Shown here: piece by piece, positions 4,222-49,520 of the stretch | How the letters are laid out: each line of letters begins with the position of its first letter | Numbering within the stretch: position 1 is the stretch's first letter | NCBI GenBank assembly: GCA_051382295.1 | Contig: JBBCAW010000054.1 | Span: forward strand, 1 to 56,418 | Source: Bdellovibrionota bacterium FG-1 | GTDB taxonomy: Bacteria; Bdellovibrionota; UBA1018 | DNA length: 56,418 bases | Reading direction: 5' to 3' | Position numbers and translations under genes: made by a program | Notes under the pieces: generated by a model | What the model was told of the DNA's origin: nothing | Databases searched by the model: none | Seen by the model: the letters and a program-made list of their open reading frames with translations, nothing else

Positions 4222-4234
4222 ACGTTATTCGTAT

Positions 4235-4264
4235 TTGACAATCACCCACTCCGTTGGCTAAGGT
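4235..4264 (+). promoter_or_regulatory. Candidate sigma70 promoter for tRNA-Pro
   Basis: TTGACA at 4235-4240, TAAGGT at 4259-4264 (18 bp spacer), just upstream of the tRNA. Confidence 0.4.
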
Positions 4265-4281
4265 GAGCGTTCCTCATAGGT

Positions 4282-4357
4282 CGGGGTGTAGCGCAGTTGG
4301 TAGCGCATCTGCTTTGGGAGCAGAGGGTCGTCAGTTCGAATCTGGCCACCCCGACCA
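4282..4357 (+). tRNA. tRNA-Pro (anticodon TGG)
   Basis: Acceptor stem CGGGGTG/CACCCCG, D-arm GCGCAGTTGGTAGCGC, anticodon arm TCTGC-TTTGGGA-GCAGA, T-loop GTTCGAATC, encoded CCA; 76 nt. Confidence 0.97.
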
Positions 4358-4411
4358 AATTGAAGGTCCGGCGACCTGTGATCCTTCAAATGCAAGATCA
4401 AGGCTCCACTT

Positions 4412-7135
4412 TTACTCGTCACCCTGCAACCAGCTCTCCGCTTCCCGGCGAAGCGCCGCGATCCGTTCTGTTGGCCAGGTATCCAGTGGCGGGGGGAGTA
4501 CGGGGGGCCTGTCAAAAAGTCGATTGCTCGACCTGGAAAAAGTTTCCACACAAAATTTGGCCAGGAAATACCGTTTACTGACCTGTCGTCGAGGCGAGGT
4601 ATCAGCTGCCCGCAGAAGACACGCCACGATTCGCGCATGGATCTGAATATTGAAAAAATCCACCCGAAAAAGCGGTTCCAGCACCTCATGTGCCCCATCG
4701 AAATCATCTGCCGTGATCAAACGGTCGGCCACCATGACTCGGAACAAGACTTCACCCAACAAACTCGCGGGTTTTGGCGCGGGTTCACCCTGGCTTGCCT
4801 GCCGAGTGAAGGCTTCAAGCTCCAGAAATGGTTTGCGATCCATGCCTGAATAGGAGGAATTGTCGTGCCAGATCCCGAATGCTCGTTCGAAATGCCTGGC
4901 CAAGTAACAGGCCATCCCAAGAAGGTGCAAGGCTAGTCCATACCAGGCGGGGGGATTGGCGGGATTTGTCGCTTCGAGCACGCTTTCGAGCGTCTCGCGT
5001 GCGGTGCTAGGATCGGCATCACGAATCAACCGCTTGGCGCGCTCAATCCCGATGCCAGGATGCCCTGGATAGCGCTCCCACATCCAGTCAAGCAAGGCCG
5101 GTGAACGTTCAAACGAATAGGGTGTCCGCTCATGGGCAAGATAAGCGGCAAACGCCGAATCGGGATCATCCACATTCCGCAGCTTCTGGGCTTCGAACCA
5201 GCGCGCTAACTCCAGGGGCGGCAAGTTCTGAATCATCGCGGAGTAAGCCAATGAGGAAGACTTCCACTCCCGGAAACTCTCGCCCTCCGCGATGAAAAGC
5301 CCAGAAAAATCCGGAAACTCAAGTCGTACCTCGTCGGCTTCAATTGCGATTGGCTTGCCGTCGAGCGGGATCAGACGCACGCTCGAGCGCTGGGGTAGGA
5401 CAGCCAATGCGTGCTTGCCATTGCCACTTTCAAAAAGCATGAGCCGGTCGGTGGAGGGCACTTCGAACAGGGGTTTTAGGTGATCATCTTCCGGCGTTAA
5501 AGCGCACAGGGTCCATTCTTCACCCCGAATACAATTGATGAAAACCAGTCCGTGTGTGGAATTCCCCGCAACCGCGTGCATACCCTCTCCATCCGCGCCT
5601 CGGATCCGCATGACTTCCACCAGGCCTTCTTGCCGCCAGGAAAAAAAGCCGATCCACGGCTCCAGATCTTCTTCATCCTCCTCTCTCTCTTCATTTTCCC
5701 CTGCTTCCGCGCTCGGCCCCCAAAATGGGAGTGAGTTGTGGACGCAAAGAAGTAATTCTCCGTTAACGGGATGACGGAGGCCCGTGCTCATTTCCTGATT
5801 TGCGCCGAGCTCAACGCTTCTTTTTTTTCGACCCCGAAAGTCCAGCAACTCGACTCGGTTTGCACCAATCGGTCCGAGCAGGAGTTCGATTTCACCTTTG
5901 TCCTCTAGTATGATCGGAAAACCATCCCGTCCGATGGAGCGCAGCAATTGTCCCTGGTCTAAATCGATGACTGACGTACGCGCTCCGAGCCTGGGCCGTC
6001 CCCCATGCATCAGCCAGAGATACCGTCCCCCTAGATCGGTCACGGCATTTTCGATTTTGTCATCAGCAGGAAGTAGGCCTGCAACGGACCGGAAGTCCAA
6101 AATCTTCCAGTGGGGATCCCGACTCATCCTCAAAACCACGCCCGTTTCCCCGACCAGGGTTAGCCTCGCACCATCGAAGGCATAACTGATGATATTAAGC
6201 GGCACCGGACCACGGAAGGTAACGGTTTCGAAAACTCTCCCACTCGCTATGTCGACAGTAGCGAGGAAGCCCCATTGCCCCCAGCCCGAAAAAAATAAAG
6301 CGATTCGCCCGGACGGATCGATGCAACGGACCGCCCACGAGTCCCTCACGTCCGGGATATGATTAAATAGATCGGGTGGACAGATGTCCTCCGAAAAGAC
6401 CTCGAGTTTCCATTCGCGATGAAGCTCCAGCTGAAAGTGGGCCACCCGTGCCGTCCAGTGCTTGCCCAAGTCCTCATTGGCGACCATCCGCGATAATTCG
6501 AGAGCTGAGTCGCGTGCCCCAAACCAATCTCGACTCATGATACATTGCTCGTGTCGATTTTCTAAGCTTCTCACTTTAACGGCCATGCTCAGTTGGAGCC
6601 CCAGCGACGCCCATCTTGTCTGTTCCTCGGCTCCAAGATCCCTCTGTCTGACTTCTCGAAACAATGACTCCGCCCTGAATACCTCGCCACGTTTCAACAG
6701 TGCCTCCATCTCGCACAGGGCGCTTCCGGCGCGCTGTCTTGCGGCTTCAAGCTCAATGGCTTCCAATTGAGCGAGCAGGTTCACCCCCTCTGGAATATCG
6801 GCAAGCAGCTCTCGATGGGGTTCAAGCTCGCTGAGCGTTGCGTTGGATGAAGATAAACCGGATTGAAGCTTTTCGCTGGCTGTAAACCAAGCGGCTAGCG
6901 CCGCTCCAATACGCTTCATTTTGACTTTTCCTTCGCGCGAAAAGAGTGCTTCCGCTTGGAGCAAGAGGCGTGGATTGAGCTTTTCACTTGCAAGCAAGAG
7001 CCGTCGATTATCTAGGTCCAACTCCAGGAAGCAAATGACCGCCTCAGCGACTTGTCCCACTTCAAGCAACGTGCGCAACGCCTGCTCGTGCTGTTGGGCA
7101 ATTTCGCAGCGCAAGGCATTCTCTGCTTCAGTCAA
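4412..7135 (-). CDS. Large hypothetical protein (helical/TPR-like N- and C-terminal parts, central beta-rich region), probably 5'-truncated
   Basis: 907-aa ORF starting at TTG; frame stays open without ATG up to 7291; no recognisable catalytic motif. Confidence 0.6.
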   Translation of the reverse strand: MTEAENALRCEIAQQHEQALRTLLEVGQVAEAVICFLELDLDNRRLLLASEKLNPRLLLQAEALFSREGKVKMKRIGAALAAWFTASEKLQSGLSSSNATLSELEPHRELLADIPEGVNLLAQLEAIELEAARQRAGSALCEMEALLKRGEVFRAESLFREVRQRDLGAEEQTRWASLGLQLSMAVKVRSLENRHEQCIMSRDWFGARDSALELSRMVANEDLGKHWTARVAHFQLELHREWKLEVFSEDICPPDLFNHIPDVRDSWAVRCIDPSGRIALFFSGWGQWGFLATVDIASGRVFETVTFRGPVPLNIISYAFDGARLTLVGETGVVLRMSRDPHWKILDFRSVAGLLPADDKIENAVTDLGGRYLWLMHGGRPRLGARTSVIDLDQGQLLRSIGRDGFPIILEDKGEIELLLGPIGANRVELLDFRGRKKRSVELGANQEMSTGLRHPVNGELLLCVHNSLPFWGPSAEAGENEEREEDEEDLEPWIGFFSWRQEGLVEVMRIRGADGEGMHAVAGNSTHGLVFINCIRGEEWTLCALTPEDDHLKPLFEVPSTDRLMLFESGNGKHALAVLPQRSSVRLIPLDGKPIAIEADEVRLEFPDFSGLFIAEGESFREWKSSSLAYSAMIQNLPPLELARWFEAQKLRNVDDPDSAFAAYLAHERTPYSFERSPALLDWMWERYPGHPGIGIERAKRLIRDADPSTARETLESVLEATNPANPPAWYGLALHLLGMACYLARHFERAFGIWHDNSSYSGMDRKPFLELEAFTRQASQGEPAPKPASLLGEVLFRVMVADRLITADDFDGAHEVLEPLFRVDFFNIQIHARIVACLLRAADTSPRRQVSKRYFLAKFCVETFSRSSNRLFDRPPVLPPPLDTWPTERIAALRREAESWLQGDE

Positions 7136-7152
7136 GCGACCTCGTAGCTGCT

Positions 7153-7521
7153 TTGGATCCGATCCCCCGCAATCGAGCGCCTGCCGGAGAAACCGAATTT
7201 CTTCAGCTAGGTCTCCCCGCCGTCTGGATTCTTCCTGAGGATAGCTGGCTCGGGTGGTTGCGGCAGCACGCCCCCGCCTACCAGAACGCGCTCAAGACGA
7301 GTATCGACCGGAGAGGTAAAATCATTTTACACCAGGAACTACTTATTGCTCGGATCAAGGATCTCAGTTTGCGTGTCAAACTCGAAAAAGCATTGCCAGA
7401 GAACAGGCAATTTTTGACGCTTGATGAGGAATATGTGGCTTTTCCGGCGGGCTTGTTACCAATCGTTGAAAAGGTGGTCAGGAAAGAAGGTCATGTCATC
7501 CAGGTGGTGAAAACCCAATGA
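7153..7521 (+). pseudogene. Probable C-terminal remnant of a gene coupled to the downstream ORF
   Basis: Only the part from ~7310 (GKIILHQELLIARIKDLSLRVKLEK...) looks protein-like; ATGA overlap with 7518; 5' part overlaps the open antisense frame of the 907-aa ORF. Confidence 0.4.
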
Positions 7522-9224
7522 AACTCAAAAGCATCGATGTCGATGGATTTGAAACAATCACGAATGCGGCAGGCTCGGACATTCGAAGGGACCTGCACAC
7601 TTTTATCCGGTATGTCGCCGAAAAGGGCATCAAGCGCTCTCATCGGGGCAATCTGATTCCCAAGGCGGACCTGCTTAGACTGCAGAAGCAAATGTCGCGG
7701 CAGGACTCTTTGACTGAAAGTGGTTCCGCCTGGATTAGGGCGGTGGATCATCTTGCTTTGGATTTGGATTTCATCCACTACGATACGAAAGGAGAATATG
7801 CCGGCTATTCGAGCAGGGAGGCTTCCTATCCTGACAACCAAATTGAGGTTCAATCTGGTCGGTATGATCAATTTCTGGCACTTTCCCTCCAGGATCAAGA
7901 AAACACGCTTTTAAATGGTCTCCTTCAGGGGGGCGGCGGTGCTAGTGATCATGAGAAACATGAATTTATGCATCCGTCCCCTTTGGGAAGACTGGATCAG
8001 TTTGATTGTTCTGGTTGCGCGATCGGAGTGCTTCCGACCCTTGATTTTGCTGAAATTAGGCGATTTCTTTTAAACCTTCTGGCCACTCTTCCAACTGACA
8101 CTTGGTGGAGTACGCAATCGTTGATCGAGGAATTGAAAGATAAACACCCGTATTTTTTAATTCCAAAGATCGTCCATTTTAAAAATACTTACGAACGGAA
8201 CGAAGGTCGATATGGCAACTTCTCGGAGTACGAGGGTGACCGCTATTATGGAACAAAAATTCAAATTTTAGTGAAAGACCCGGATGCTTTTGAGCGCGTC
8301 GAGGGGCGATATCTTGAACGCTTCCTGGAATCGATCCCTTTGATGCTGGGCTACGTGGATGTCGCCTACCGGCCTAAAAGTAAAAACAAGTTCTTCCCAT
8401 CGCGAGGAGAGCTGGTAGCCTTTCGGGTGCGTGGCCGCCTGCCAGTCATGTTGAACAAGGAAATCCGCGAACCCCTGGTCCGGGTCGAGCCCAATTTCGA
8501 AGTGTATATTGAATCTGAACTCTACCCAGCGCGTATTCTGTGCGAACTGGCCCCGTTTGCCGAAATTGTCAAGCAAGGACCCATGACGGTTCTGCGACTC
8601 AATAAAGCCATGGCCACCGTGGAACTGGCCCGTCACCGGTCCATACGGCTTACGGAGTATCTCGGACAGCGCGTTTCGTCTCCGCTGTCTCAGAACGTGA
8701 TCACTGAACTCCAAAGCTGGGGTGAACATGCACAGGTATTCACGCTTTTTACCGGGGCAGGCCTACTCGAAATGGCGGAGTCCGCGGAGAAACTGAAAGC
8801 AATCGAGCCTCACTTGGTGAAGAACATTTCGTCGCGGTTTTCGATCATCAGCGCGCCTCAAGGGTGCCTGGAAAAACTACTGGACGCGGAACTAGTCCCT
8901 ATTTCATTAAAACATGCCAATATGCTGTTGAATTGGGTGCCAGCAGAATCAATCTCGGTTTTTCCGAAAAAGAAAACCGCAAAATCGGTTATTACCGGGC
9001 CTAAGCAGGTCAATCTGAAAACAAGGACTTTAGTCACTCACTACTTTCCGTCTCAAGAACTCTATGATGTGTTCCTCAAGGGACTGATACAAAAACGATG
9101 TGCCTTCAAAACGGAAAAATCAGAGTTAGCAATCACTTTTTCAGGAAAGATGGGTTCTCATATCCGTGACATCAAAAAAGAGGTGAGCGATCGTTATCAT
9201 ATCAACTACGAAGAGATGGATTGA
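7518..9224 (+). CDS. Hypothetical protein with helicase-associated (XPB/Ssl2 N-terminal, Helicase_C_3-like) domain
   Basis: 568 aa. LVRVEPNFEVYI...LAPFAE...VLRL...LSQNVITELQSW resembles Helicase_C_3; no Walker motifs. Confidence 0.6.
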   Translation: MKLKSIDVDGFETITNAAGSDIRRDLHTFIRYVAEKGIKRSHRGNLIPKADLLRLQKQMSRQDSLTESGSAWIRAVDHLALDLDFIHYDTKGEYAGYSSREASYPDNQIEVQSGRYDQFLALSLQDQENTLLNGLLQGGGGASDHEKHEFMHPSPLGRLDQFDCSGCAIGVLPTLDFAEIRRFLLNLLATLPTDTWWSTQSLIEELKDKHPYFLIPKIVHFKNTYERNEGRYGNFSEYEGDRYYGTKIQILVKDPDAFERVEGRYLERFLESIPLMLGYVDVAYRPKSKNKFFPSRGELVAFRVRGRLPVMLNKEIREPLVRVEPNFEVYIESELYPARILCELAPFAEIVKQGPMTVLRLNKAMATVELARHRSIRLTEYLGQRVSSPLSQNVITELQSWGEHAQVFTLFTGAGLLEMAESAEKLKAIEPHLVKNISSRFSIISAPQGCLEKLLDAELVPISLKHANMLLNWVPAESISVFPKKKTAKSVITGPKQVNLKTRTLVTHYFPSQELYDVFLKGLIQKRCAFKTEKSELAITFSGKMGSHIRDIKKEVSDRYHINYEEMD

Positions 9225-9523
9225 TGGAAGTTCAAGCCATCAACATAGCGCCCCTTCCAGTTCGATCCGTAAGGGGCAAGCGCGGGCGGATAATTCTCCT
9301 GAACGATGCCAAACTTTCGCAATTGACGCCGAAGATAGGTGCGCGTGTGGCCAGTGACCTCGGACAACTCCCTCATGGAATGCTGCTTTTTGACCCTCAA
9401 AGGCTCTAAACTGGTGGGGTCTTCGGCAATTCCTGAAAAATTTATTCTAACGTTATCAATGAGTTGAGCGGATTCAAATGTCGTTTTTACTGCCCGACCA
9501 AATAAAAAACACAATAAATTCAA
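9206..9523 (-). pseudogene. Truncated HTH/recombinase-family-associated ORF at island edge
   Basis: HTH-like SMRELSEVTGHTRTYLRRQLRKFGI followed by APYG, the motif that precedes the recombinase domain of large serine recombinases; the ORF ends shortly after. Confidence 0.4.
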
Positions 9524-38326: not shown

Positions 38327-38428
38327 CTCAATTCTAATCGGTAATTTTAGTTAGTTCATTAAAAATGAATTAACGTAGGGTTTTTTAATTAGATAGATCT
38401 TTTCCAGATACATTAAGTCGGTTATTAA

Positions 38429-38457
38429 TTGACGCAACAAGTCATTAGTTCTATATA
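38429..38457 (+). promoter_or_regulatory. Sigma70-like promoter with overlapping TGAC-N7-GTCA palindrome
   Basis: TTGACG-17bp-TATATA, then RBS AAGGAG; conserved in the second copy (47242-47270). Confidence 0.6.
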
Positions 38458-38474
38458 ACTCAAGGAGATTTCTT

Positions 38475-39563
38475 ATGTTGTTCCCTAAGCTTTTGAAAAT
38501 CAGTCCATTTGTGATCCTGACGCTTCTGAACCTTTACTCCCTCACCGCTCATGCGGCTAAAGAGGGTGGAGTGAGTGGCGGAGGGGGCGATGCCTCCGAA
38601 GTTCGAGTAAACGACATCCGTGCGGATATTTTGAAATGGATTGGTGAGGGCGGAGCCGAGACGCTCAAGCTTCCGTCCGGAATCACCCGCGAGTCTTATC
38701 GCGCAGGCATGGAAAAATTTCTAACCCCTCACGCGGTCGTGATAGGCTTTGTGACTACCGCGCAAGAAACTCTGAGTTCAAATCCGGAAGGAAAAGTAAA
38801 CGTCAGTGGCTTAGCAAAAACTTGTCGCGGTTTTGTTTCGAGCGAGGATCAACTCCCCCACATTCTTTGTAACGCGGAACGCTTTGCGGCCAACTCAGAG
38901 TCCCAACAGTATCAACTCATTCATCATGAATTTGCCGGCCTAGCAGGCTTGGAGCAAAATATTGGAGCATCGTCCGATTATCAGCTTTCTCGGCAGCTAA
39001 CCGACTTTTTGGTACCGCAGACCGTGTTGCGATTAGCAGTGAAACGGAACATCCCCGCCGCGCCCTATATTCCGGAGGGCGCATCCGAAACGGACAAAGC
39101 ATTTCTCGGGCTTCAGGGAAGCTATACCAAAATTGCAGGGGCGGGTAATTGTCCACTCGCGTTTGAAATCGAGGCCCATGGGGGCGGCAAATGGGACAAA
39201 GCACTACTCAACGTCCGAACACCCCAAAGTCGAGCATTTTTTGACGAAGGAGAGTTTCACCAAGAAACGTACGAATCAAGCTATGAATGGAAACCCCTCT
39301 ATTCCGCCTATTCGAAACACAAGATCGAGACTTACCTCAACCCAAAAGCTGGATACGTGGTACACACAAATGTCGAGTTTCTCAGCAACTATCCAACCGT
39401 GATTCGTTGGTTTGATTCCCCATCCTGGATCCGAGAATCTCTCTTTCTAAAGAAAAACAGCAATGGCACTCTTCATTTTGCAAAAAATATCGACACCCAA
39501 GGAACCGATGCAGCCATTTGGCAACAACTCATCAACTTCAACTGCCTCTATCGCGCGCAGTAA
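38475..39563 (+). CDS. Secreted hypothetical protein (GGVSGGGGD motif, HHE motif), paralogue 1
   Basis: Signal peptide AHA; LIHHEFAGL; 362 aa; colinear paralogue at 47288. Confidence 0.85.
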   Translation: MLFPKLLKISPFVILTLLNLYSLTAHAAKEGGVSGGGGDASEVRVNDIRADILKWIGEGGAETLKLPSGITRESYRAGMEKFLTPHAVVIGFVTTAQETLSSNPEGKVNVSGLAKTCRGFVSSEDQLPHILCNAERFAANSESQQYQLIHHEFAGLAGLEQNIGASSDYQLSRQLTDFLVPQTVLRLAVKRNIPAAPYIPEGASETDKAFLGLQGSYTKIAGAGNCPLAFEIEAHGGGKWDKALLNVRTPQSRAFFDEGEFHQETYESSYEWKPLYSAYSKHKIETYLNPKAGYVVHTNVEFLSNYPTVIRWFDSPSWIRESLFLKKNSNGTLHFAKNIDTQGTDAAIWQQLINFNCLYRAQ

Positions 39564-39580
39564 ACAGAAACAAAACCACT

Positions 39581-39616
39581 GGGGCACTCGCATTCGTGGG
39601 TGCCCCTGAACTTTTT
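39581..39616 (+). terminator. Rho-independent terminator
   Basis: GGGGCACTCGC-ATTC-GTGGGTGCCCC hairpin followed by a T-run; homologous hairpin after paralogue 2. Confidence 0.65.
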
Positions 39617-39685
39617 GGTGACGCCGCTAAAGATACGAAGACTTCGTCGATCAAATTTTTCCTCACCCAGAATCAGCACTGCCTT
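39611..39685 (-). repeat. 75-bp relic homologous to the 3' part of the AAA/DUF4143 gene (40438-40512)
   Basis: Encodes KAVLILGEEKFDRRSLRIFSGVTKK versus KAVLILGEEKFDRRSLRAFSGVIKK; most differences are synonymous. Confidence 0.9.
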
Positions 39686-40344: not shown

Positions 40345-41535
40345 CTAAGCCAAAGCCTCCCATGGATAGAGTTCAACCTGATCCACCTGAATGGTCTCAT
40401 GCCCTCCATAGAGACAAAGCAGCTCGGTGGGCTTTAGTTTCTTGATGACACCACTAAAGGCACGAAGACTTCGTCGATCAAATTTTTCTTCACCCAGAAT
40501 CAGCACTGCCTTGAGCCGGTTTTTGTCTTCAATCAATAAGTGAACCAAGGCGCCCTTGGCGGCGCGGTAGTAACTGAGTTTTGTATCTAGCAAAGACTGG
40601 CCGGAATAACTCAGTTGAGCGGAAACCTCCAATACGAGTTGCGTGTAAAGCAACCGTTCAACGGAGGCGCCCAATCGTGAGGCGAGTCCAGAATCACAGA
40701 GGAGATAAAGATCCTTGCCCGTGCTTTGCTGATGGGGGCGAATTTTTTGAATGGCAAAGAGTTGTTCCAATAGATTGAGGTGAGTTTTTACGCGCCGCAG
40801 ATCTTTTTTAACAAAGTCGCGAATCGAAGTGACGTCGGGGTGCTCCAGCGTCGCAATCCCTTCGAGAATCGAAAGAGCCAGCTCCGGATCCGGTCGCACT
40901 GCGCCTTTGAATTGAAGGAGATCTCTAAAGGCGGTCACTTCGATCCATTCTTGTAACTTTTGAGTTCGTTCAGCCTCCGAACGAAGTGCGAAAATGCCCG
41001 GCAACCCCCCTCCTCGGAGGCTCTCGATAAACTGCTCACGTCGAATGCGGGGTTTTTTATGCAATACGAGTGTGGTTTTAGAACTCAGAGAAGGCGGAAG
41101 CTCGTGAGCCTCCGCCAACGTCAGCGGAAAAAGTCGTTGTCGACTGAGCCGCCCCGTCAGGGACTCACGAATCATGACCTCGCGTGAAAACTCAGTCGAT
41201 CCTAAAAGTAAAAACTGACCCCGGTTTTTGTGAACATCTACCCGGGCTTTAATCTCATCAAACAGATCGGGAGCCTTTTGAGCCTCATCAATGGCGAGGT
41301 GCTTGCTTTTTGCATACTCCGATAAAAAGAGAGAGGGAGTATTTTGAGCCATCTCTCTCGTTTGCCTCAAATCGAGCGTGACATAACGATAGTCAGCACC
41401 CAGTTCCGCCGGAAGAACCTCACGCGCCAAAAAGCTCTTGCCACACTGACGCGGACCTTGAATCGTGACGATCGGAGAAAATTGAAGTTTTCGTTTTAAC
41501 TCCGAAATAGCAAACCGAGTGCGTGAATGAGGCAT
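40345..41535 (-). CDS. AAA_14 ATPase with DUF4143 domain
   Basis: GPRQCGKS, IDEAQKAPDLF, FLLLGS, ESLTGR, GGLP, K.YL.DSGL. Confidence 0.88.
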   Translation of the reverse strand: MPHSRTRFAISELKRKLQFSPIVTIQGPRQCGKSFLAREVLPAELGADYRYVTLDLRQTREMAQNTPSLFLSEYAKSKHLAIDEAQKAPDLFDEIKARVDVHKNRGQFLLLGSTEFSREVMIRESLTGRLSRQRLFPLTLAEAHELPPSLSSKTTLVLHKKPRIRREQFIESLRGGGLPGIFALRSEAERTQKLQEWIEVTAFRDLLQFKGAVRPDPELALSILEGIATLEHPDVTSIRDFVKKDLRRVKTHLNLLEQLFAIQKIRPHQQSTGKDLYLLCDSGLASRLGASVERLLYTQLVLEVSAQLSYSGQSLLDTKLSYYRAAKGALVHLLIEDKNRLKAVLILGEEKFDRRSLRAFSGVIKKLKPTELLCLYGGHETIQVDQVELYPWEALA

Positions 41536-41674
41536 GTTATAAACTATTAAAACATACCTATTTTGGACATTCAATGTCGTTTTAAGGGAGGTAAGTAGAT
41601 TCAAAAATATTGATGCATTGCGTCATTTTTTATGCTAAATCCGTCTTTGTCTTTAAGAAAGGATAAACCAAACC

Positions 41675-41953
41675 ATGAAAACCCCCATGATTCTGAGTGT
41701 CGCTACCCTCGCCCTTTTATCGAGCCTCTTATCCGTTCAGGCTGCCGAGCAGCCGCTACCCCAGACAGAGCAAGCCTGCCCCAAAATTTCCCATCAAACC
41801 ATCCAAGACCTTGTCCATCAGGGCGTCCTCAAGGAGGATCCTATGACGGGTGAATACGAGATCAATGTCGAAGTCCTTCGCGCTTTGAAAAAAGAAGGGC
41901 GATTTAAGGAGAGTGACATAGCTGGAGAAGGTAGGATCTGCGAAGGTGTTTAG
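41675..41953 (+). CDS. Small secreted protein; candidate precursor peptide of the YcaO operon
   Basis: RBS AAGGA; Sec signal ending VQA; 92 aa; C-terminal tail SDIAGEGRICEGV; first gene of a tight operon. Confidence 0.75.
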   Translation: MKTPMILSVATLALLSSLLSVQAAEQPLPQTEQACPKISHQTIQDLVHQGVLKEDPMTGEYEINVEVLRALKKEGRFKESDIAGEGRICEGV

Positions 41954-41957
41954 GCTT

Positions 41958-43517
41958 ATGGCCTTGTCATTCGGTAGAAAATTCATTTTGATTTCTATTT
42001 TTATCACAAGCCTCCTAGTTATTTTGGCGTTAAAAACCAGCTTATTCAAAGGATTAGCTTTCAATCGAGGTGAACAGCAGATGAAAGTAAGAATTGGTTT
42101 CAATTCAACCACATCCGTAACTGAGTTTGACCCCACTCGTATTCGCTTGGTTTCCGAAGCGGTCGTTCTTGATAACCTCTTTAGTCCGCTGATTCGGACC
42201 GCCGATGATGGAAGTATTTTTCCAGATGCTGCAGAAAAGTATTTCTGGGACGGAAACGAGCTTCACTTTGTGATGCGATCGGATCTCAAGACGGTCGACG
42301 GCGATCCCATCACGGCCGAAGACGCCGAGGTCACCTTTAAACGGCTTTTGATTGATCGAGATAATGCTCATGGGGATCTTCAGACTTTTCTGTGCCCCAA
42401 CGCCAAGATTAAATCGATCCACGATCGCTGTGAAGGGATGCGAGTCGAAGGAAATCATTTCATCTTAAAGGTACTGAAGGCTGAGTATCGCCCTTTTTTG
42501 ATGCAGATGCTGATCAATATGGATTTTGGAATTATTCCAAGAATTGCTTTGGATCAATCCACCCCACTTCCGAAAATAAAAAATTATCGAAAAACATCGG
42601 GGCCCTATTACGTCGAAAAAGAGGACCACCCAGGTGCGTTTGTGCTCAGAGCCAACCCCCATCATTGGCTAAGCAAAACGGGGATTCCGGAGATTTTAGA
42701 ATTTCATCCCTTCGAACTTCCGGAGCAGGCTTTAGAGGCTTTGGCAAAAGGACAAGTGGACTACGTGTCAGGAGTTCATACCGAGGGAACAAAAGAAATC
42801 ACGGAAATGAGGAAAAACCCAGACCTCCGTTTTTTTGATACTCAACCCATTAAAAAATTCATCGTGGCCACCACCCGCGACCGGTTAAAGAACTTTAGTG
42901 CGGAAGAACGGCAAGCGGTTTTTGAGCTTTTTAGAAAAGCGTATTTTAAAGAATTTGAAGGAACGGATTGGAAACCCTCGCTTGAATTTTTCCCGGTTTT
43001 TGGCGAGGGAGGACTTACCCCCGAGCAGCGTAAGGCGTTTGATGAGTGGAGAGAGAAAGCGTCGAAGACGCCCATTCATCGGCCATTCACGCTGGCTACT
43101 GGTAAGAGACGAATCAAGATGCTTCGAAAGCTTTTTCAAAATGAACCGCTGGTTCAGGTGGTCGAAGTCAAAACCGCCGCACCATTTTTAAGACCAGAGG
43201 AACGTCCAGATTTTTACGTTACTCCAATTGATACCGGTTTTTTTGAAAGCATCAACCTCGTCAGCTACAATATTAAGGCCCAAAAATTTGACCTCTCACC
43301 CGAGGAAGGTCGCGTGTGGCTCGGCAAGTATATGAGCCTTCCGGAAAAAGAGCAGCGGCTCGCCATGCTGCGCGAGCTTCATCTGGACGCCCTTAAAAAA
43401 GGGTTAATCGGTGTGATTGCAGAGTCGCCCTACACTCATATCACCCGAAAGCCGTTTCGGTATGACGGCGGAAAATATTTTGCAGGATCGGAGTTATGGC
43501 CCATCCGTCAAGATTGA
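41958..43517 (+). CDS. Membrane-anchored ABC-type peptide substrate-binding protein (family 5, OppA/DppA-like)
   Basis: N-terminal TM; FDP, NLFSPL, GDPITAEDA..TFKR, SGPYYV, L.ANPHHW; no permease genes nearby. Confidence 0.8.
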   Translation: MALSFGRKFILISIFITSLLVILALKTSLFKGLAFNRGEQQMKVRIGFNSTTSVTEFDPTRIRLVSEAVVLDNLFSPLIRTADDGSIFPDAAEKYFWDGNELHFVMRSDLKTVDGDPITAEDAEVTFKRLLIDRDNAHGDLQTFLCPNAKIKSIHDRCEGMRVEGNHFILKVLKAEYRPFLMQMLINMDFGIIPRIALDQSTPLPKIKNYRKTSGPYYVEKEDHPGAFVLRANPHHWLSKTGIPEILEFHPFELPEQALEALAKGQVDYVSGVHTEGTKEITEMRKNPDLRFFDTQPIKKFIVATTRDRLKNFSAEERQAVFELFRKAYFKEFEGTDWKPSLEFFPVFGEGGLTPEQRKAFDEWREKASKTPIHRPFTLATGKRRIKMLRKLFQNEPLVQVVEVKTAAPFLRPEERPDFYVTPIDTGFFESINLVSYNIKAQKFDLSPEEGRVWLGKYMSLPEKEQRLAMLRELHLDALKKGLIGVIAESPYTHITRKPFRYDGGKYFAGSELWPIRQD

Positions 43518-44512
43518 GCCTCTGGGCTTTCCTTCATCGAGAAACCCTTCAACTGCAAGTCACCGAATTTGCATGGCCAAAGCAACTCGACCTAAAACTT
43601 TCTGACATCGAAGTTCGCCTCACATTGGATAATCGACCTTTCACTGGGCGTGGGACTGCCGCTACCTCGGAGCTGGCTTTCGATATTGCGCTGGCAGAAG
43701 CTTTGGAAAGAGGCGTCCAATACTCTGCTCGCCAAAGCGGCCAAACCTATGCAGGATTCGCGGCGCACATCACCGAAGAACTCGCATCCCAATCTTCGAT
43801 CCAGGAACTCATCGAAAGAGACTCCTTTTTTTGCCACTTTTATACCCAAACGCCTTTTTTAGAAGAAATCGATCCATCCATTCTAGGCGAGGCCTGGGAG
43901 CAGATTTCGAAATACCTTAAAAAGCACCAAACCGCGTTGCGATCTTTTAGGATGAGAACGCCTAACGGATTTACGGGGGTATTTACCGCCGCAAACGGTC
44001 CTCATGCCTCCCGCCCTTTTCAATTGATTCTAGGATTGGGGTGTTCCTCAGAGGAGAATTTGCCCCTGTTGAAAGCACTTCAATCGTCGATCTGGGAGTG
44101 CCTTCGAAACCTCACGGCATGGTTAGAAAACATTTCCGAAAGGGCGCTCACGCTCTCGGAATTTCTATCTCTTCCTCATCCTGGCCCAAAAGAGCATCAA
44201 AGTTTGGCCATGAGTTTAGATCATCGTACGGGAATAGATTCCCTTTTTCCAACAACGGCAATGCCGACGCTGGCTTCCGAAGTACAGGGCACCAACTCCG
44301 GCCTTGCTTCTGACTTGATTCAGACCAAACGCATCCCGTTCCCGACTAAGAATATACCCGCCCCACCCTTGGTATTTATGGGTGCGACCCACCCTGAGGC
44401 CATTCAGACTCAGTTTGGAAAATCCCATTTTTCAGATCAAAAACTCGGCCGTCTAAAGCGGTTCAATCCGAATATGAAGGCTATTTTTACAGAGCCCCAC
44501 CCCATAGGATAG
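43496..44512 (+). CDS. YcaO-like family protein (compact, stand-alone)
   Basis: TGRG, ALAEALER, GFAAH, ELIERD, LGLGC and Pro-rich C-terminus EPHPIG, in YcaO order. Confidence 0.8.
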   Translation: MAHPSRLSLWAFLHRETLQLQVTEFAWPKQLDLKLSDIEVRLTLDNRPFTGRGTAATSELAFDIALAEALERGVQYSARQSGQTYAGFAAHITEELASQSSIQELIERDSFFCHFYTQTPFLEEIDPSILGEAWEQISKYLKKHQTALRSFRMRTPNGFTGVFTAANGPHASRPFQLILGLGCSSEENLPLLKALQSSIWECLRNLTAWLENISERALTLSEFLSLPHPGPKEHQSLAMSLDHRTGIDSLFPTTAMPTLASEVQGTNSGLASDLIQTKRIPFPTKNIPAPPLVFMGATHPEAIQTQFGKSHFSDQKLGRLKRFNPNMKAIFTEPHPIG

Positions 44513-44514
44513 TT

Positions 44515-46452
44515 ATGAAGCATTCACCTGCCTCTTTTGAAAAAGAAATGAGAAGAATTCGCCTTCAAATCTTGAGTGTCGGAATTATTCTGTTTCTATT
44601 ATCTTGCGTCCTGAGGGTTGGTTTGACTTACAAGAATCGCCAAGAAACAGCCCATGCGATCGGTCTCTCTGTCGAGCGAAATCTCCAAATTGGCGATAAC
44701 CGTGAAGTCCTCTTGAGCCTAGAACGAGGGACGCAGGGAGTTTTCAGCGGCGTGAGATATCAAGAGACCCTTCCCTCTGGACAAAAGCACATCCTTTTTG
44801 AATTAGGCGGATCCAAATCTAGTTTTGGAGAATGGACAGTTCGGTATTCCGTCCGATCTAACCCATTTTTTCAGGGAACCACAGAACTCCTGTTTTACTT
44901 TAGTCCATTTGAAGGGATCGGTTTCCTGATCTTACTTGTCATTCCGCTATTTGCCATGCTCGCTTGGTGGATTCTAAGAAAGGCCGCCTCCAACCTTTCT
45001 GAACAAATCGAAATAAGTACCACCGCCCAAAAGGCGAACGCACGAAATCAGCTCGCAGCCCAGGTCGCGCATGATATTCGAAGCCCACTGGCCGCCCTCG
45101 ATATGGTTTTGGGTGACCTGTCTGGCATTGACGAGGATCGCCGAGTCATGATTCGAAGTGCGGTGACCAGAATTAAAGATATCGCCAACAACTTATTGGA
45201 AAAAAACCGAAATCCTCTCCAAACCGAAAGCAAAGAGGCCAGCTCCGTGCATCTGGTTTCTGCGGTTTTAGACGGTCTGGTCACTGAGAAGCGTACCCAA
45301 TATAGGTCCAAGCTTGGAATGGAGATTTCCTTTGAGTTAACCGCTACTTCATATGGTCTTTTTGCAGAGGTTCAGCTTGTGGAGTTTAAGCGAGTTATTT
45401 CTAATCTCATCAACAACAGCGTAGAGGCTATGGATAGCGATGGGTTAGTCCAACTTCATCTTTTAGCTACAAATGACGAAATCAAAATCACGGTGCGAGA
45501 TACGGGCAAAGGCATCCCTCCTGAAATTCTTCCTCGCCTCATGTCTCGGGGCGAAACTCATGGAAAGAAGGGGGGCTCCGGGCTGGGGCTATTTCACGCA
45601 AAGCAAAGTATTGAAAGCTGGAAAGGCCAGATGATCCTTTCATCGGAAATAGGAAAGGGCACACAAGTCGTAATCACTCTACCTCGCGCGAAAAGTCCCT
45701 CATGGTTTGTGTCAGACCTCTCGATTTCCCCAGGGTCGCATCTCGTCATCCTCGATGATGACGAAAGTATTCATCAAATTTGGCAAGGGCGGGCCGATGC
45801 TGCTCGATTGAGTGCGCATGGAATTGAGCTAATCCATCTTTCCACTCCATCCGATCTTCGCGCGTGGATTGAACAGGCTAAAACTTTTTCTACACCCGTG
45901 CAGTATCTGTTGGATTTTGAACTTGTGGGCTTCAAAGAAACGGGCTTAGATTTGGCGGAAAAATTGAACATCTCCAAGCAAAGCATTCTGGTGACCAGCC
46001 GCTACGAAGAACCAGTTATTCGTGAGCGATGCCAGAAACTTCATATCCCTCTCATCCCCAAGGGAATGGCAGGTTTTGTACCCATTAAAATAGTAGAAGC
46101 CGCAAAACCCCACCAAAAACCTGACGCTATCCTGATTGACGACGACCCGCTTGTTCATCTCACCTGGAAAGTCGCAGCCAAAAGAGCAGGCGCCACTTTC
46201 GCAATTTTCGACTCTTTAGGCGCATTTTTGGAGCAGGCCGCTGAATTTGATCGAAATACACCTGTTTACATTGATTCATTTTTGGGTAAAGACACTCATG
46301 GAAATGAAATTCAGGGCGAATTAGTGTCCCAGGAGATCTTTCGCTTTGGGTTCAAGACCATTTACCTTGCCACCGGACTACCGCCTCAGGATATGAAGCT
46401 TTATCCATGGCTTTCGGGTGTTCGCGGTAAAGAACCACCGATGGCAACCTAG
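44515..46452 (+). CDS. Membrane sensor histidine kinase with two C-terminal receiver-like domains
   Basis: Two TMs; QVAHDIRSPL, NLINNSVEA, DTGKGI, GSGLGL; ILDDDESIHQIW and LIDDDPLVHLTW receiver starts. Confidence 0.9.
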   Translation: MKHSPASFEKEMRRIRLQILSVGIILFLLSCVLRVGLTYKNRQETAHAIGLSVERNLQIGDNREVLLSLERGTQGVFSGVRYQETLPSGQKHILFELGGSKSSFGEWTVRYSVRSNPFFQGTTELLFYFSPFEGIGFLILLVIPLFAMLAWWILRKAASNLSEQIEISTTAQKANARNQLAAQVAHDIRSPLAALDMVLGDLSGIDEDRRVMIRSAVTRIKDIANNLLEKNRNPLQTESKEASSVHLVSAVLDGLVTEKRTQYRSKLGMEISFELTATSYGLFAEVQLVEFKRVISNLINNSVEAMDSDGLVQLHLLATNDEIKITVRDTGKGIPPEILPRLMSRGETHGKKGGSGLGLFHAKQSIESWKGQMILSSEIGKGTQVVITLPRAKSPSWFVSDLSISPGSHLVILDDDESIHQIWQGRADAARLSAHGIELIHLSTPSDLRAWIEQAKTFSTPVQYLLDFELVGFKETGLDLAEKLNISKQSILVTSRYEEPVIRERCQKLHIPLIPKGMAGFVPIKIVEAAKPHQKPDAILIDDDPLVHLTWKVAAKRAGATFAIFDSLGAFLEQAAEFDRNTPVYIDSFLGKDTHGNEIQGELVSQEIFRFGFKTIYLATGLPPQDMKLYPWLSGVRGKEPPMAT

Positions 46453-46991
46453 GTTGAGATTGCGGGACGCATCAGCAACGCCTCGACAATCTCCGTTTCG
46501 CTACAACATTTTTTCTTCGCGGCTTTTTTGAGACATTCAATAGCCATCGGATCCAGTCGGAAGGTTTTAACGACCTTCTTTTTGCTCGACGGCTTTACCC
46601 GTTTATCCCGAAGCTGAAAATCGGCCCATACCTTCATTTTTTCATAAGGTATTTCACAAAAATCTTCGCCCATCTCTTCACCTTTTCTCAACTGATCAAC
46701 GACACGAGCTAAATCCATGTGAATCAAAGGATCCAAATCAAAATGCTTCCCCAAGCGCAGAACCGCCGCAGGCAAAACCTCCAGAATACGAGGCTCAACA
46801 TTTTGCCCCGCCCACATCGCGCCATCCAGTTTCAATCGCTTATTAGGAAGCAGCGGAATATCAAGGTTAGTTCGCAAGAAACCCTTCGCCACCAAAAACC
46901 CCATCGTCTCGATAAAACGAGGATCACGCCGATTTTTGGCATCCTGTTTTGCCTTCTTCTTAATTTCTTGAATCAGAGCTTCTCGGGTCAT
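46449..46991 (-). CDS. Hypothetical protein with C-terminal ribbon-helix-helix-like segment
   Basis: RBS GGAGG; KTFRLDPMAIECLKKAA...SETEIVE. Confidence 0.65.
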   Translation of the reverse strand: MTREALIQEIKKKAKQDAKNRRDPRFIETMGFLVAKGFLRTNLDIPLLPNKRLKLDGAMWAGQNVEPRILEVLPAAVLRLGKHFDLDPLIHMDLARVVDQLRKGEEMGEDFCEIPYEKMKVWADFQLRDKRVKPSSKKKVVKTFRLDPMAIECLKKAAKKKCCSETEIVEALLMRPAIST

Positions 46992-47287
46992 GTAAAATCC
47001 TCCAATCGGCCCCCGGGGGCGACCGCCTCACGGATCAGCGGCATATACGCTCAGTTTACAGTGTTCATAATATGCTGTATATACGATATTTTAACCCGTA
47101 ATTCATATAACTTACTAGCAAAAAGAAAATCAATCCCTATACTACTCCCGACTTGTTTCAGACTAATTAATTAAAAATGAATTAACACAGGGTTTTTAAA
47201 ATTAGATAGATCTTTTCTAGACAGATTAAGTCGGCTATTTATTGACGCACCAGATCATTTGTTTTATATAACTCAAGGAGATTTCTT

Positions 47288-48376
47288 ATGTTGTTCCCTA
47301 AGCTTTTAAAAATCAGTCCGTTTGTGATCCTAACCCTACTGAACCTTTACTCCCTCACCGCTCATGCGGCTAAGGAGGGGGGCGTGAGTGGCGGAGGGGG
47401 CGATGCTTCCGAAGTCCGAGTGAACGACATTCGTGCGGATATCTTGAAATGGATCGGTGAAGGCGGTGCCGAGACGCTCAAGCTTCCGTCCGGAATCACC
47501 CGCGAATTTTATCGCGCCGGCATGGAAAAATTTCTAGCCCCTCACGCGGTCGTGGTGGGTTTTGTGAGCACGGCGCAAGAAACCTTGACTCCAAATCCAG
47601 AAGGCAAAGTGAGCGTCAATGGTTTAGCCAAAACTTGTCGGGGCTTTGTTTCGAGCAAGGACGGACTCCCCCATATTCTTTGCAATGCGGAACGCTTTGC
47701 GGCCAATTCGGAATCCCAACAGTACCAACTCATTCATCATGAGTTTGCCGGCCTAGCAGGCTTGGAGCAAAATATTGGAGCTTCGTCCGATTATCAGCTT
47801 TCTAAGCAACTGACGGATTTTTTAGTAGCACAGACCGTGTTGCGATTGGCGGTAAAACGGAACGTGTCCGCCACGCCCTATATTCCGGACGGCGCATCCG
47901 AAACTGACAAGGCGTTTATTGGGCTTGAGGGAAGCTATACCAAAATTTCAGGGACGGGTAATTGTCCACTCGCGTTTGAAATCGAGGCCTATGGGGGCGG
48001 AAAATATGAAAAAGCACGACTCAACGTCCGCAAGACCGGTGGTTCGGCAACTTTTGACGAAGGAGAGATGAGCCAAGAGACGTATGAAACGAGCTATAAC
48101 TGGACAGAGATCTATTCCAGCTGCACAAAGGACAAGTTAGTCACCTACCTCAATCCAAAAACCGGATACGTGGTGCATTCAAACGTTACATTCATCAGCT
48201 TTTTTCCTGGCGTGATTCACTGGCTTGAGGCCCCCGCCTGGGTCCGGACATCTCTCTTTTTCAAGAAAAACAGCAGCGGGATTCTTCATTTTGCAAAACA
48301 GATTGATACTAAGGGCACTGATGCGGCGACATGGCAACAGGCCATCAACTTCAACTGCCTCTATCGTGCGCAGTAA
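47288..48376 (+). CDS. Secreted hypothetical protein, paralogue 2
   Basis: 362 aa; first 73 aa identical to 38475-39563. Confidence 0.85.
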   Translation: MLFPKLLKISPFVILTLLNLYSLTAHAAKEGGVSGGGGDASEVRVNDIRADILKWIGEGGAETLKLPSGITREFYRAGMEKFLAPHAVVVGFVSTAQETLTPNPEGKVSVNGLAKTCRGFVSSKDGLPHILCNAERFAANSESQQYQLIHHEFAGLAGLEQNIGASSDYQLSKQLTDFLVAQTVLRLAVKRNVSATPYIPDGASETDKAFIGLEGSYTKISGTGNCPLAFEIEAYGGGKYEKARLNVRKTGGSATFDEGEMSQETYETSYNWTEIYSSCTKDKLVTYLNPKTGYVVHSNVTFISFFPGVIHWLEAPAWVRTSLFFKKNSSGILHFAKQIDTKGTDAATWQQAINFNCLYRAQ

Positions 48377-49136: not shown

Positions 49137-49400
49137 AACGCCCCAGACTGGGTTTGTGAAGTGCTTTCTGACAGCACCGCACGCCTGGACCGTGTTAAAA
49201 AGCTGCCCATTTACGCCCGGGAAAAAGTGAGTTTTGTGTGGCTCATTGATCCGAGCGCAAAAACATTGGAAATTTACCGCCATCAGGGGCAAGAAGGCTC
49301 GGGATGGATACTCCTCAATACCTTTGCCGACGATGAACGAATCCGAGCCGCTCCCTTTGATGCCATCGAATTAGATTTAAATGCGCTTTGGCTGGAGTAG
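49137..49400 (+). pseudogene. Uma2 family endonuclease, C-terminal half only
   Basis: APDWVCEVLSDSTARLDRVKKLPIYA...VWLIDP..KTLEIY...PFDAIELDL.ALW; N-terminal half and an in-frame ATG are absent. Confidence 0.8.
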
Positions 49401-49422: not shown

Positions 49423-49520
49423 TAGATCGGCAAACAGTGGGTATGACTCACTCTTTGCCGATCTATCTGATTTTACGTAGATCGGCAAAGAGTCCTTGCT
49501 GTTCACTCTCTGCCGATCTA
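49423..49520. repeat. Four alternating-orientation copies of 16-mer TAGATCGGCAAAGAGT (two tandem inverted repeats)
   Basis: 49423-49438 (+), 49450-49465 (-), 49478-49493 (+), 49505-49520 (-); spacers 11/12/11 bp. Confidence 0.92.

Follow-up and report, generated by a model that had tools for sequence, protein, structure and literature searches.

YcaO enzymes are known from antibiotic-type peptides that ribosomes make and that are modified after translation (RiPPs) and from a few protein modifications, and Gram-positive bacteria are known to have peptide-pheromone circuits that include an enzyme devoted to modifying the peptide. Here we analyse a cassette of four genes from Bdellovibrionota bacterium FG-1, which encodes a small precursor protein, a family-5 binding protein, a YcaO and a hybrid histidine kinase, and which lies within a stretch of 56,418 nucleotides (assembly GCA_051382295.1, contig JBBCAW010000054.1, positions 1 to 56,418; the whole stretch is referred to as the window). 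The cassette is a variation on the design of precursor, modifying enzyme and receptor kinase, built with a minimal YcaO, a predicted Sec-exported substrate and an orphan family-5 binding protein, and it is apparently undescribed; the window copy is an intact, regulator-less member of its family. An earlier reading of this DNA (the first-pass annotation), made without database searches, knew of no described system with this architecture, and full-text literature searches, whose scope left out most subscription journals and the supplements, turned up no publication that connects a YcaO with a binding protein and a kinase.

In the agrBDCA system of Staphylococcus and the comQXPA system of Bacillus, a precursor, a modifying enzyme and a receptor kinase likewise share one operon. 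Most copies of the cassette resemble these systems further in having a response regulator and a promoter that is likely to be self-activating, although the window copy has no regulator. The chemistry is thiolactone formation or prenylation in agr and comQXPA, in contrast to the putative backbone activation by a YcaO, the Sec export and the additional binding protein of the cassette, and the regulators are of the LytTR or NarL type in the former and of the sigma-54 NtrC type in the latter, whose hosts have a double membrane. LuxP-LuxQ, which acts on the sigma-54 activator LuxO, and TorT-TorS both place an orphan periplasmic binding protein beside a hybrid kinase, as the cassette does, and in other cassette copies the predicted pathway also ends in a sigma-54 activator. 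The binding protein of the cassette differs from theirs in belonging to family 5 (peptide, nickel or opine type) and in being membrane-anchored, and its presumed ligand is gene-encoded and enzyme-modified within the one operon.

The azoline-forming cyclodehydratases LynD and TruD (cyanobactins) and McbD (microcin B17), and stand-alone RiPP YcaOs, share with the window YcaO the fold, the aligned stretches of the three ATP motifs and a short co-encoded substrate with a Cys/Thr tail, which in the window is predicted to extend to the active site. Unlike them, the window enzyme has no E1-like or RRE partner, dehydrogenase, leader peptidase or exporter and misses the TIGR03604 cut-off; its putative substrate has a signal for Sec export or lipoprotein anchoring and, as a rule, a single target, docking is predicted on the N-terminus of the enzyme itself, and the gene lies inside a two-component sensor operon. 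E. coli YcaO (EcYcaO), which acts on uL16, and the archaeal YcaOs that act on McrA are stand-alone enzymes like that of the window. They differ in that a dedicated small open reading frame (ORF) adjoins the cassette YcaO, and their structural scores against it are lower (Z 15.2 for EcYcaO and 18.1 for the archaeal MjYcaO). According to the part of the report on EcYcaO drawn on here, E. coli also has no TfuA, as in the window genome (PMC13063428). Bufferins and oxazolins, in the portion of the account used here, have Sec signal peptides instead of leaders, a modified Cys and a periplasmic product (PMC12452194); a Sec signal and a Cys target are predicted for the cassette precursor as well. Here, however, the enzyme is a YcaO and not an MNIO (DUF692) enzyme with DUF2063, neither of which was matched by Pfam among the window ORFs, a single Cys is present, and genes for a binding protein and a kinase belong to the locus.

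The cassette consists of the following genes:

41675 to 41953, plus strand: precursor gene (92 residues, from the ORF list); the protein ends ...ESDIAGEGRICEGV

41958 to 43517, plus strand: family-5 binding protein gene (ATG start, 519 residues, PF00496); an alternative GTG start lies at 41946

43496 to 44512, plus strand: YcaO gene (338 residues, PF02624 and structure); the protein ends PHPIG

44515 to 46452, plus strand: hybrid histidine kinase gene (645 residues, HATPase_c and hhalign)

The first-pass annotation had described four consecutive same-strand genes at 41675–46452, and both this arrangement and the sizes of the junctions agree with the ORF list. The precursor and binding-protein genes are separated by 4 nt with the ATG at 41958, or overlap by 8 nt with the GTG at 41946; the binding-protein and YcaO genes overlap by 22 nt and the YcaO and kinase genes are 2 nt apart. 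The profile searches proposed at that time matched both SBP_bac_5 (PF00496) and YcaO (PF02624). The claim that the binding protein comes without permease or ATPase held as well, as Pfam matched no ABC permease or ATPase family among the 53 scanned window ORFs; none was found either among the conserved neighbours of related loci, of which a sample was scanned.

The 338-residue protein had been read as a YcaO, and this assignment is secured by structure. The Pfam match is marginal (PF02624, 26.8 bits against a cut-off of 25.7, over profile positions 114–233 only; the homologues L017 and L016 match at 75.6 and 45.9 bits). The AlphaFold2 model (predicted local distance difference test score, pLDDT, 94.5; predicted template modelling score 0.92) contains no extra domain and no signal peptide, and all of its top PDB matches in Foldseek are YcaOs. 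Structural alignment with VIA-align gave the highest scores with azoline formers, LynD (Z 22.2, 288 aligned residues, root-mean-square deviation 3.3), MusD (Z 21.6) and McbD (Z 20.9), followed by the archaeal thioamidating enzymes (Z 18.1–18.3, MjYcaO being at 18.1) and E. coli YcaO (Z 15.2), the next non-YcaO structures scoring Z 8.5 or less. LynD- and McbD-type enzymes align with the window YcaO up to its C-terminus, whereas the archaeal YcaOs do so only to residue 325. The canonical PxPxP is the C-terminal motif of azoline-forming YcaOs; the window protein ends in PHPIG, which aligns with the C-termini of LynD and McbD.

The conserved Glu/Arg stretches of the window family align with those of solved YcaOs. 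In an alignment of 69 family sequences E104, E107 and R108 are invariant, D109 is invariant or nearly so, and E68, E71, R72, H91, H114, E201, R319, P334 and H335 are nearly invariant, while W10, L20 and W27 are invariant in an alignment of 13 sequences; the roles of individual residues in the ATP and Mg motifs are assumed here. The profile of the 69-sequence alignment matches MJ1094 (6pe3; E 1.7e-18) and McbD (E 6.5e-8), and also the M. kandleri YcaO, TruD, LynD and MusD. An exhaustive HMMER search collected 563 representatives of the family at E ≤ 1e-3, of which 351 remain at E ≤ 1e-10; among the 150 representatives listed, almost every one is about 310–345 residues long. A word-indexed search returned 13 proteins only, of 325–338 residues. 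Fused forms of 593–2000 residues were looked for and none was found, which is weak evidence. A search for TfuA (PF07812) returned nothing from the genome (97.7% complete) and did match the positive control in M. acetivorans. Judged from its sequence, the window enzyme is a stand-alone, presumably cytoplasmic member of a large unnamed family. All YcaOs share three ATP-binding motifs, as stated in the part of the literature consulted (PMC8120280), and the fold match together with the alignment over these motifs bears out the identification of the protein.

Alignment-guided scans yielded 44 related loci, 19 from species genomes and 25 from metagenomes, the former being metagenome-assembled genomes labelled as Bdellovibrionota lineages and Elusimicrobia plus one labelled Streptomyces. 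Loci were counted where the flank was at least 1600 nt for the binding protein, 1900 nt for the kinase and 150 nt upstream for the small ORF. In tblastn searches with the window proteins, 31 of the 34 loci encode a binding protein immediately upstream of the YcaO; the other three (L016, L017 and L018) all have distant YcaOs. A kinase gene follows the YcaO immediately downstream in 26 of 30 loci, but not in the same three or in L037. In 30/30 loci the start of the binding-protein gene marks the end of a small ORF of 57–152 residues whose N-terminus is hydrophobic, the ORFs having been chosen by eye from ORF lists. Chance juxtaposition of the four genes was considered and is ruled out by these counts (31/34, 26/30 and 30/30), which bear out the conserved linkage of peptide, binding protein and kinase that the first-pass annotation had wished to see checked; as far as gene order can tell, the four genes form a real conserved module.

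One of these loci, L017, comes from a metagenome-assembled genome labelled Streptomyces griseus. It combines genes for a YcaO, for a family-5 binding protein and for an NtrC-type regulator with the type IV secretion set seen in Bdellovibrionales-labelled loci; given its Bdellovibrio-like neighbours, the label is probably wrong.

The genome of the window holds a second cassette:

contig C120 (L047), 3747 to 9368: second cassette, with the gene order YcaO, peptide, binding protein, histidine kinase, NtrC-type regulator (from ORFs)

Its YcaO has 353 residues, its 55-residue peptide contains a lipobox and ends GGGGGGGTCDF, and a binding protein, a kinase and an NtrC-type regulator follow. Despite the rearranged order, the small Cys-tailed ORF with its signal peptide still adjoins the YcaO.

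Among 60 relatives no close orthologue of the window YcaO was found, the best non-self match scoring 55.7 bits, compared with 404.6 bits for itself. Fifteen weaker matches from 11 genomes were examined, and 12 of the regions, in 10 genomes, hold YcaO-, binding protein- and kinase-like genes together; with cassettes in 10 of the 11 genomes, the family is therefore native to and diverse in the lineage. Six of the 12 are of the C120 type, in which the small signal-peptide ORF stays beside the YcaO although the order has changed; in five of these it encodes 47–56 residues with a Gly-rich stretch and then [S/T/G]-C at the end, and in the sixth (L056) 60 residues without Cys. The kinases of the other six are 36–52% identical to that of the window. 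Import of the window copy by horizontal transfer was also considered and is unproven, since 12 of the 15 weaker-match regions carry the binding protein, YcaO and kinase.

The 92-residue precursor has no match in Pfam or NCBIfam. It comprises a signal peptide at about residues 1–23, a helical middle and a conserved C-terminal module at residues 63–92 (...VLRALKKEGRFKESDIAGEGRICEGV), which contains Cys89. Our reading, taken from hydrophobicity alone, is that the N-terminus is probably a Sec signal peptide cleaved at VQA/AE, and N-terminal hydrophobicity together with the conserved Cys module supports the earlier description of a small protein with an export signal. Homologous precursors are 57–152 residues long, usually with a single modifiable target residue, and most have one tail Cys and no His/Cys-rich motif. 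Of the 28 distinct peptides of related loci, 25 have a Cys no more than 15 residues from the C-terminus. Their alignments share an L..GR...C module, made up of a Leu, a Gly-Arg/Lys pair, a short strand-like stretch, a linker of about 11–18 residues and a Cys or Thr, and this tail residue often precedes Gly runs or terminal Asp/Glu.

The module coincides with the part of the precursor that is placed on the enzyme by complex prediction:

41861 to 41950, plus strand: precursor codons 63–92, with a predicted docking motif (Leu71, Gly75-Arg76 and a strand) and the tail Ile88-Cys89 (complex prediction)

The input consisted of the YcaO (69-row alignment), peptide residues 24–92 (20-row alignment), ATP and two Mg. 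Three runs scored 0.86, 0.56 and 0.64 (median 0.64), with at least 57% of contacts in common and a partner pLDDT of at least 59, compared with 0.00–0.01 for three controls (best 0.01). Of 157 solved complexes, 116 come up to the mark used, as do 2 of 215 mismatched pairs; these counts are rough here, with the alignments being our own and ligands riding along. In the best run the interface involves peptide residues 63, 65–68, 70–71, 74 and 76–92 and YcaO residues 4–27, 50–52, 71–76, 201–214 and the C-terminal 337–338. The contacts of lowest predicted error join Leu71 and Arg76-Phe77 to YcaO residues 12–24, in the N-terminal helix and strand that hold the invariant W10, L20 and W27, and the tail contacts residues 50–52, 71–76, 201–214 and 337–338, the last of these belonging to the PHPIG terminus. 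The controlled prediction thus puts the conserved C-terminal module on the enzyme and supports the proposal that the co-encoded peptide is its partner; that the small protein is the substrate of the YcaO is, as a modelled result, the best-supported step of the scheme. Since docking is predicted on N-terminal elements of the enzyme itself, no separate leader-binding partner would be needed.

It is improbable that the YcaO acts on something else, for example an unrelated protein or a cytoplasmic part of the binding protein or kinase, leaving the small protein as an unrelated periplasmic accessory of the sensor. Such activities have precedents: archaeal YcaOs thioamidate McrA, MJ1094 (the closest solved enzyme by sequence) being one of them, and EcYcaO thioamidates uL16, according to the portion of the report used here (PMC13063428). 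Three cassettes of the relatives also have no obvious small ORF. The small ORF nevertheless remains beside the YcaO under a changed gene order, its C-terminal Cys/Thr module is conserved, and the docking prediction passes with controls at 0.00–0.01; moreover, the same part of that report sets EcYcaO, which has no nearby short ORF, apart from RiPP YcaOs (PMC13063428).

The binding protein matches SBP_bac_5 (PF00496) at E 3.2e-13. By sequence it is closest to NikA (E 2.8e-8) and OppA (E 3.4e-6), and NCBIfam places it nearest NikA, OppA and CntA, with nikA and CntA as top matches. In its AlphaFold2 model (pLDDT 89.8) a helix at residues 3–33 precedes a complete two-lobe fold, and a hydrophobic N-terminal segment is present in 26 of 28 homologues; both observations support the transmembrane anchor that had been assigned to it. 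VIA Z scores for residues 40–519 are 30.0 for AapF, 28.9 for NikA, 28.3 for AgaA and 27.7 for OppA, and scores in this range (Z 26–30) do not discriminate between binders of metals, opines and peptides.

These affinities bear on a serious rival, which we consider unlikely on balance, in which the small protein is a periplasmic co-sensor, for example for a metal. A YcaO-installed group, such as a thiazoline or thioamide next to carboxylates, would bind the metal or react with a redox or chemical cue, and the binding protein and kinase would read the loaded state, much as if a bufferin or oxazolin were wired to a two-component sensor. The nearest sequence relatives of the binding protein are nickel or metallophore binders (NikA at 2.8e-8 against OppA at 3.4e-6, with nikA and CntA leading in NCBIfam), NikA is about level with the top structural match at Z 28.9, and the tail Cys often precedes Asp/Glu at the very C-terminus. 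Lipobox variants and the lack of an outer-membrane exporter fit a protein retained by the cell, and RiPPs with Sec signals and Cys-derived heterocycles sequester periplasmic copper, as described in the part of the account drawn on (PMC12452194). Against this, most peptides have a single tail Cys and no His/Cys-rich motif, the Z scores of 26–30 give no separation of metal from opine or peptide binders, and Pfam found no metal-homeostasis genes among the window ORFs adjoining the cassette.

The kinase matches HATPase_c at E 1.7e-21, and HisKA scores 22.1 bits over residues 176–229, under its cut-off of 26.9. NCBIfam kinase models match at up to E 5.6e-25, the NahK/ErcS hybrid model spanning residues 176–516. 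Residues 1–165 contain two transmembrane helices around a periplasmic loop of about 85 residues, as judged by eye from the translation, followed by the DHp/CA region (166–397) and two receiver-like domains (398–525 and 526–645). Pfam gave no receiver match to these two domains even at E ≤ 10. In hhalign, however, they match the receivers of the linked NtrC-type regulators with probabilities of 97.5% (E 7.6e-12) and 95.9% (E 5.7e-9), the acceptor Asp being aligned in both. The assignment as divergent receivers therefore stands, with phosphotransfer predicted only, and the "two receivers" of the first-pass annotation are confirmed as divergent domains to which Pfam is blind. The cytoplasmic core is 46–53% identical to kinases of the Elusimicrobia-labelled loci, its closest relatives, and the binding protein and YcaO of the window are closest to those of Bdellovibrionota-type loci.

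A sigma-54 NtrC-type regulator (Response_reg, Sigma54_activat and HTH) is linked to the cassette in 19 loci, as found by neighbour clustering and Pfam. Its gene lies directly upstream of the peptide gene in Bdellovibrionota-labelled loci and downstream of the kinase gene in Elusimicrobia-labelled loci, L002 and L040. Within 300 nt upstream of the first gene of the operon, 7 of 23 loci contain a −24/−12 sequence matching at least 10 of 12 positions, compared with a chance expectation of 1.4% per region, the significance being overstated in that the loci are related yet counted as independent. In L001 and L022, matches of 9/12 precede the regulator gene by 52 and 21 nt, and the second cassette of the window genome, which holds about 25 sigma-54 activators, has a 10/12 match 56 nt upstream of its YcaO gene. 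A generic scan of 41300–47300 for sigma-70 promoters and terminators returned sites no more numerous than in shuffled sequence.

In the Elusimicrobia-labelled loci, near-identical sigma-54-type motifs (TGGCATAAAAATTGCT and similar) occur at L015 1344, L041 6633, L019 4919/10618, L042 3536, L039 12669 and L042 12672. They precede a radical-SAM gene and small ORFs of 83–86 residues in the neighbourhood of the cassette, and the linked regulator may act on these genes.

On the reading that we favour, the four genes form a module that makes and senses its own modified peptide, and we put its chances at about even. The cytoplasmic YcaO would bind the C-terminal part of the co-encoded 92-residue pre-protein, with Leu71 and Gly75-Arg76 docking on its own N-terminal helix and strand. 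With ATP it would then activate a backbone amide of the tail, the likeliest target being the carbonyl of Ile88, after which Cys89 would close a thiazoline; no azole would form because no dehydrogenase is present. The modified protein would be exported via Sec and its signal peptide removed, and in the periplasm the modified tail would be the ligand of the membrane-anchored, transporter-less family-5 binding protein, which would control how active the neighbouring hybrid histidine kinase is. Most other copies would pass the signal on to the sigma-54 NtrC-type regulator of the same operon, often under a sigma-54-type promoter, and lead to self-activation. Activation of a backbone amide by the window YcaO is thus a presumed activity, and capture of the tail by the binding protein with sensing by the kinase is suggested by their conserved adjacency and by analogy with LuxP/LuxQ. 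The signal may act between cells or only within the periplasm of the producer.

The most parsimonious chemistry, though unproven, is a cyclodehydration that turns Cys89 into a thiazoline. In its favour, Cys interchanges with Thr or Ser at this position, the nearest structures are azoline formers and TfuA was not found in the genome; against it, the TIGR03604 model is missed, partner and dehydrogenase are absent and the best sequence relative is a thioamidating enzyme.

Several observations weigh against the module as a maker and sensor of its own peptide. At the level of the enzyme, the window YcaO scores 35.7 bits with TIGR03604 (SagD family), whose cut-off is 219.25; MJ1094, the closest solved YcaO by sequence, is thioamidating; no E1-like/Ocin-ThiF partner, RRE domain or dehydrogenase was matched among the 53 window ORFs; and solved YcaO-peptide complexes (6peu, 4v1t–4v1v and 6gos) may partly account for the docking pass. 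At the level of the peptide, 3 of the 28 (L010, L015 and L019) have a Thr or Ser in place of the Cys, and about 6 of the 28 carry a lipobox, which does not suit a freely diffusing autoinducer; the periplasmic product of about 69 residues also has no encoded outer-membrane route. The sensor domain of the kinase is at most 33% identical to that of any homologue. On the regulatory side, neighbour clustering and Pfam found no regulator gene adjoining the window cassette, no sigma-54 match of at least 8/12 lies within 300 nt upstream of its peptide gene, and the caveat on the promoter counts given above belongs here too. Finally, ORF inspection found no convincing small ORF near the cassettes L048, L059 and L062, whose substrate may be shorter than 40 residues or encoded elsewhere.

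These three cassettes, from relatives G018 and G033 and among the six whose kinases are 36–52% identical to that of the window, have the order binding protein, YcaO, kinase, and their YcaOs, of 320 residues in L048 and 413–416 residues in L059 and L062, end in HPLP.

The first-pass annotation had gone further and called the locus an autoinducer or quorum-sensing cassette. In the corresponding scheme, a diderm counterpart of agrBDCA or comQXPA, the tail would be clipped (for example after Gly-Arg), leave the cell, accumulate with density and be recaptured by the binding protein, switching the kinase on. We regard such a cell-to-cell pheromone as possible and doubtful. Precursor, modifying enzyme and receptor kinase are together in one operon, an arrangement that agr and comQXPA share, and in many copies the linked regulator and sigma-54-type promoter would give self-activation. 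The peptide, enzyme, binding protein and sensor loop diverge much faster than the kinase core, and several divergent cassettes occur per genome or lineage, a pattern that resembles pherotype diversification; in addition, Bdellovibrionales-labelled cassettes adjoin TrbC/VirB2 and TraC-type ATPase genes, which recalls pheromone-controlled conjugation. The cassette, however, encodes no protease, exporter or outer-membrane channel, the Gly-Arg pair docks on the YcaO in the model and is not obviously a cleavage site, some homologues are lipoproteins, and the window copy has neither regulator nor sigma-54 promoter. The quorum-sensing label is doubtful for a Sec product of about 69 residues that has no encoded exit and about 6 of whose 28 homologues have a lipobox, and a self-made ligand is ranked above a between-cell autoinducer for these same two reasons, the lack of an encoded exit and the occurrence of lipoproteins among the homologues.

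In seven Bdellovibrionales-labelled loci (L001, L003, L004, L007, L021, L022 and L028), the kinase gene is followed by genes for a sigma-70 region-4 protein, for a TrbC/VirB2 pilin and for an ATPase of the TraC/TraG type (VirB4-like). With TrbC/VirB2 and TraC/TraG genes after the kinase, the cassette therefore borders on a set of conjugative-type genes.

Many YcaO RiPPs are antibiotics, and lantibiotics have two-component systems that sense the product, as NisRK does nisin. An antimicrobial or otherwise bioactive RiPP sensed by its producer to induce synthesis or immunity would accord with this background and with the linkage of a kinase and regulator to a biosynthetic gene, yet we hold it very improbable here: the cassette lacks genes for immunity, for an ABC exporter, for a leader peptidase and for any additional tailoring, and the precursor is a protein of 57–152 residues with a Sec signal and a single modifiable residue.

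Should the module make and sense its own peptide, it would represent a new use of backbone chemistry, for signalling or periplasmic sensing, and a second enzyme class, after MNIO, that acts on RiPP precursors with Sec signals. A minimal YcaO that recognises its substrate without a partner protein would also be attractive for enzymology and engineering, and the system, which is of interest for both RiPP enzymology and bacterial signalling, can be tested directly with four genes. More tentatively, and with less confidence than we attach to the self-made ligand, the family could consist of self-contained, often mobile circuits in diderms of at least two phyla, in which the backbone heterocycle that a minimal YcaO places on a Sec-exported mini-protein is the specific key for binding protein, kinase and sigma-54 regulator. 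Peptide, enzyme and receptor would co-diversify into many "dialects" within each lineage, giving RiPP-based kin or self recognition that possibly controls conjugative elements.

In the window, the cassette lies in a stretch of about 13.5 kb (approximately 37.5–51.0 kb) that is bounded by housekeeping genes, gpsA and an acyltransferase gene (to 37490) on the left and the thiamin pyrophosphokinase gene and valS (from 50966) on the right. Its G+C content is modestly lower (0.47–0.49 against 0.50–0.55), and it further contains genes of the DUF4423, MqsA-like HTH, AAA_14 ATPase and ATPase_2 types, together with a Uma2 fragment. Pfam found no integrase, transposase or type IV secretion families among the window ORFs. 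The cassette is bracketed by a direct repeat, whose two copies are placed as follows, together with the AAA_14 ATPase gene:

38378 to 38677, plus strand: left copy of the direct repeat, at the start of a gene for a 362-residue secreted protein (38475–39563)

47191 to 47490, plus strand: right copy of the direct repeat, at the start of the paralogous gene (47288–48376)

40345 to 41604, minus strand: AAA_14 ATPase gene (Pfam)

The repeat is 300 nt long, 90% identical and spaced by 8813 nt, and includes the region upstream of the two genes; the paralogous signal-peptide proteins of 362 residues belong to no Pfam family. These repeats are context and no working part of the cassette.

An 87-nt stretch at 39599–39685 recurs with 85% identity 827 nt away at 40426–40512, in the 3' part of the AAA_14 gene; it looks like a remnant of another AAA_14 copy and a sign of rearrangement of the island. 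A 43-nt inverted repeat at 49423–49520 (77% complementary, 12-nt spacer) lies downstream of the Uma2-family fragment (49161–49400) and upstream of the ATPase_2/AAA_14 gene. ATPase genes of the AAA_14 + DUF4143 type lie beside the cassette both in the window and in three more distinct contexts (L024/L033, L026/L027/L032 and L040), and the copies so flanked mostly have no adjacent NtrC-type regulator, L040 having one. Lastly, an ORF of 180 residues on the minus strand (46449–46991), with no Pfam match, converges on the kinase gene, the two stop codons overlapping by 4 nt, and the C-terminus of its product looks by eye like a ribbon-helix-helix DNA-binding motif.

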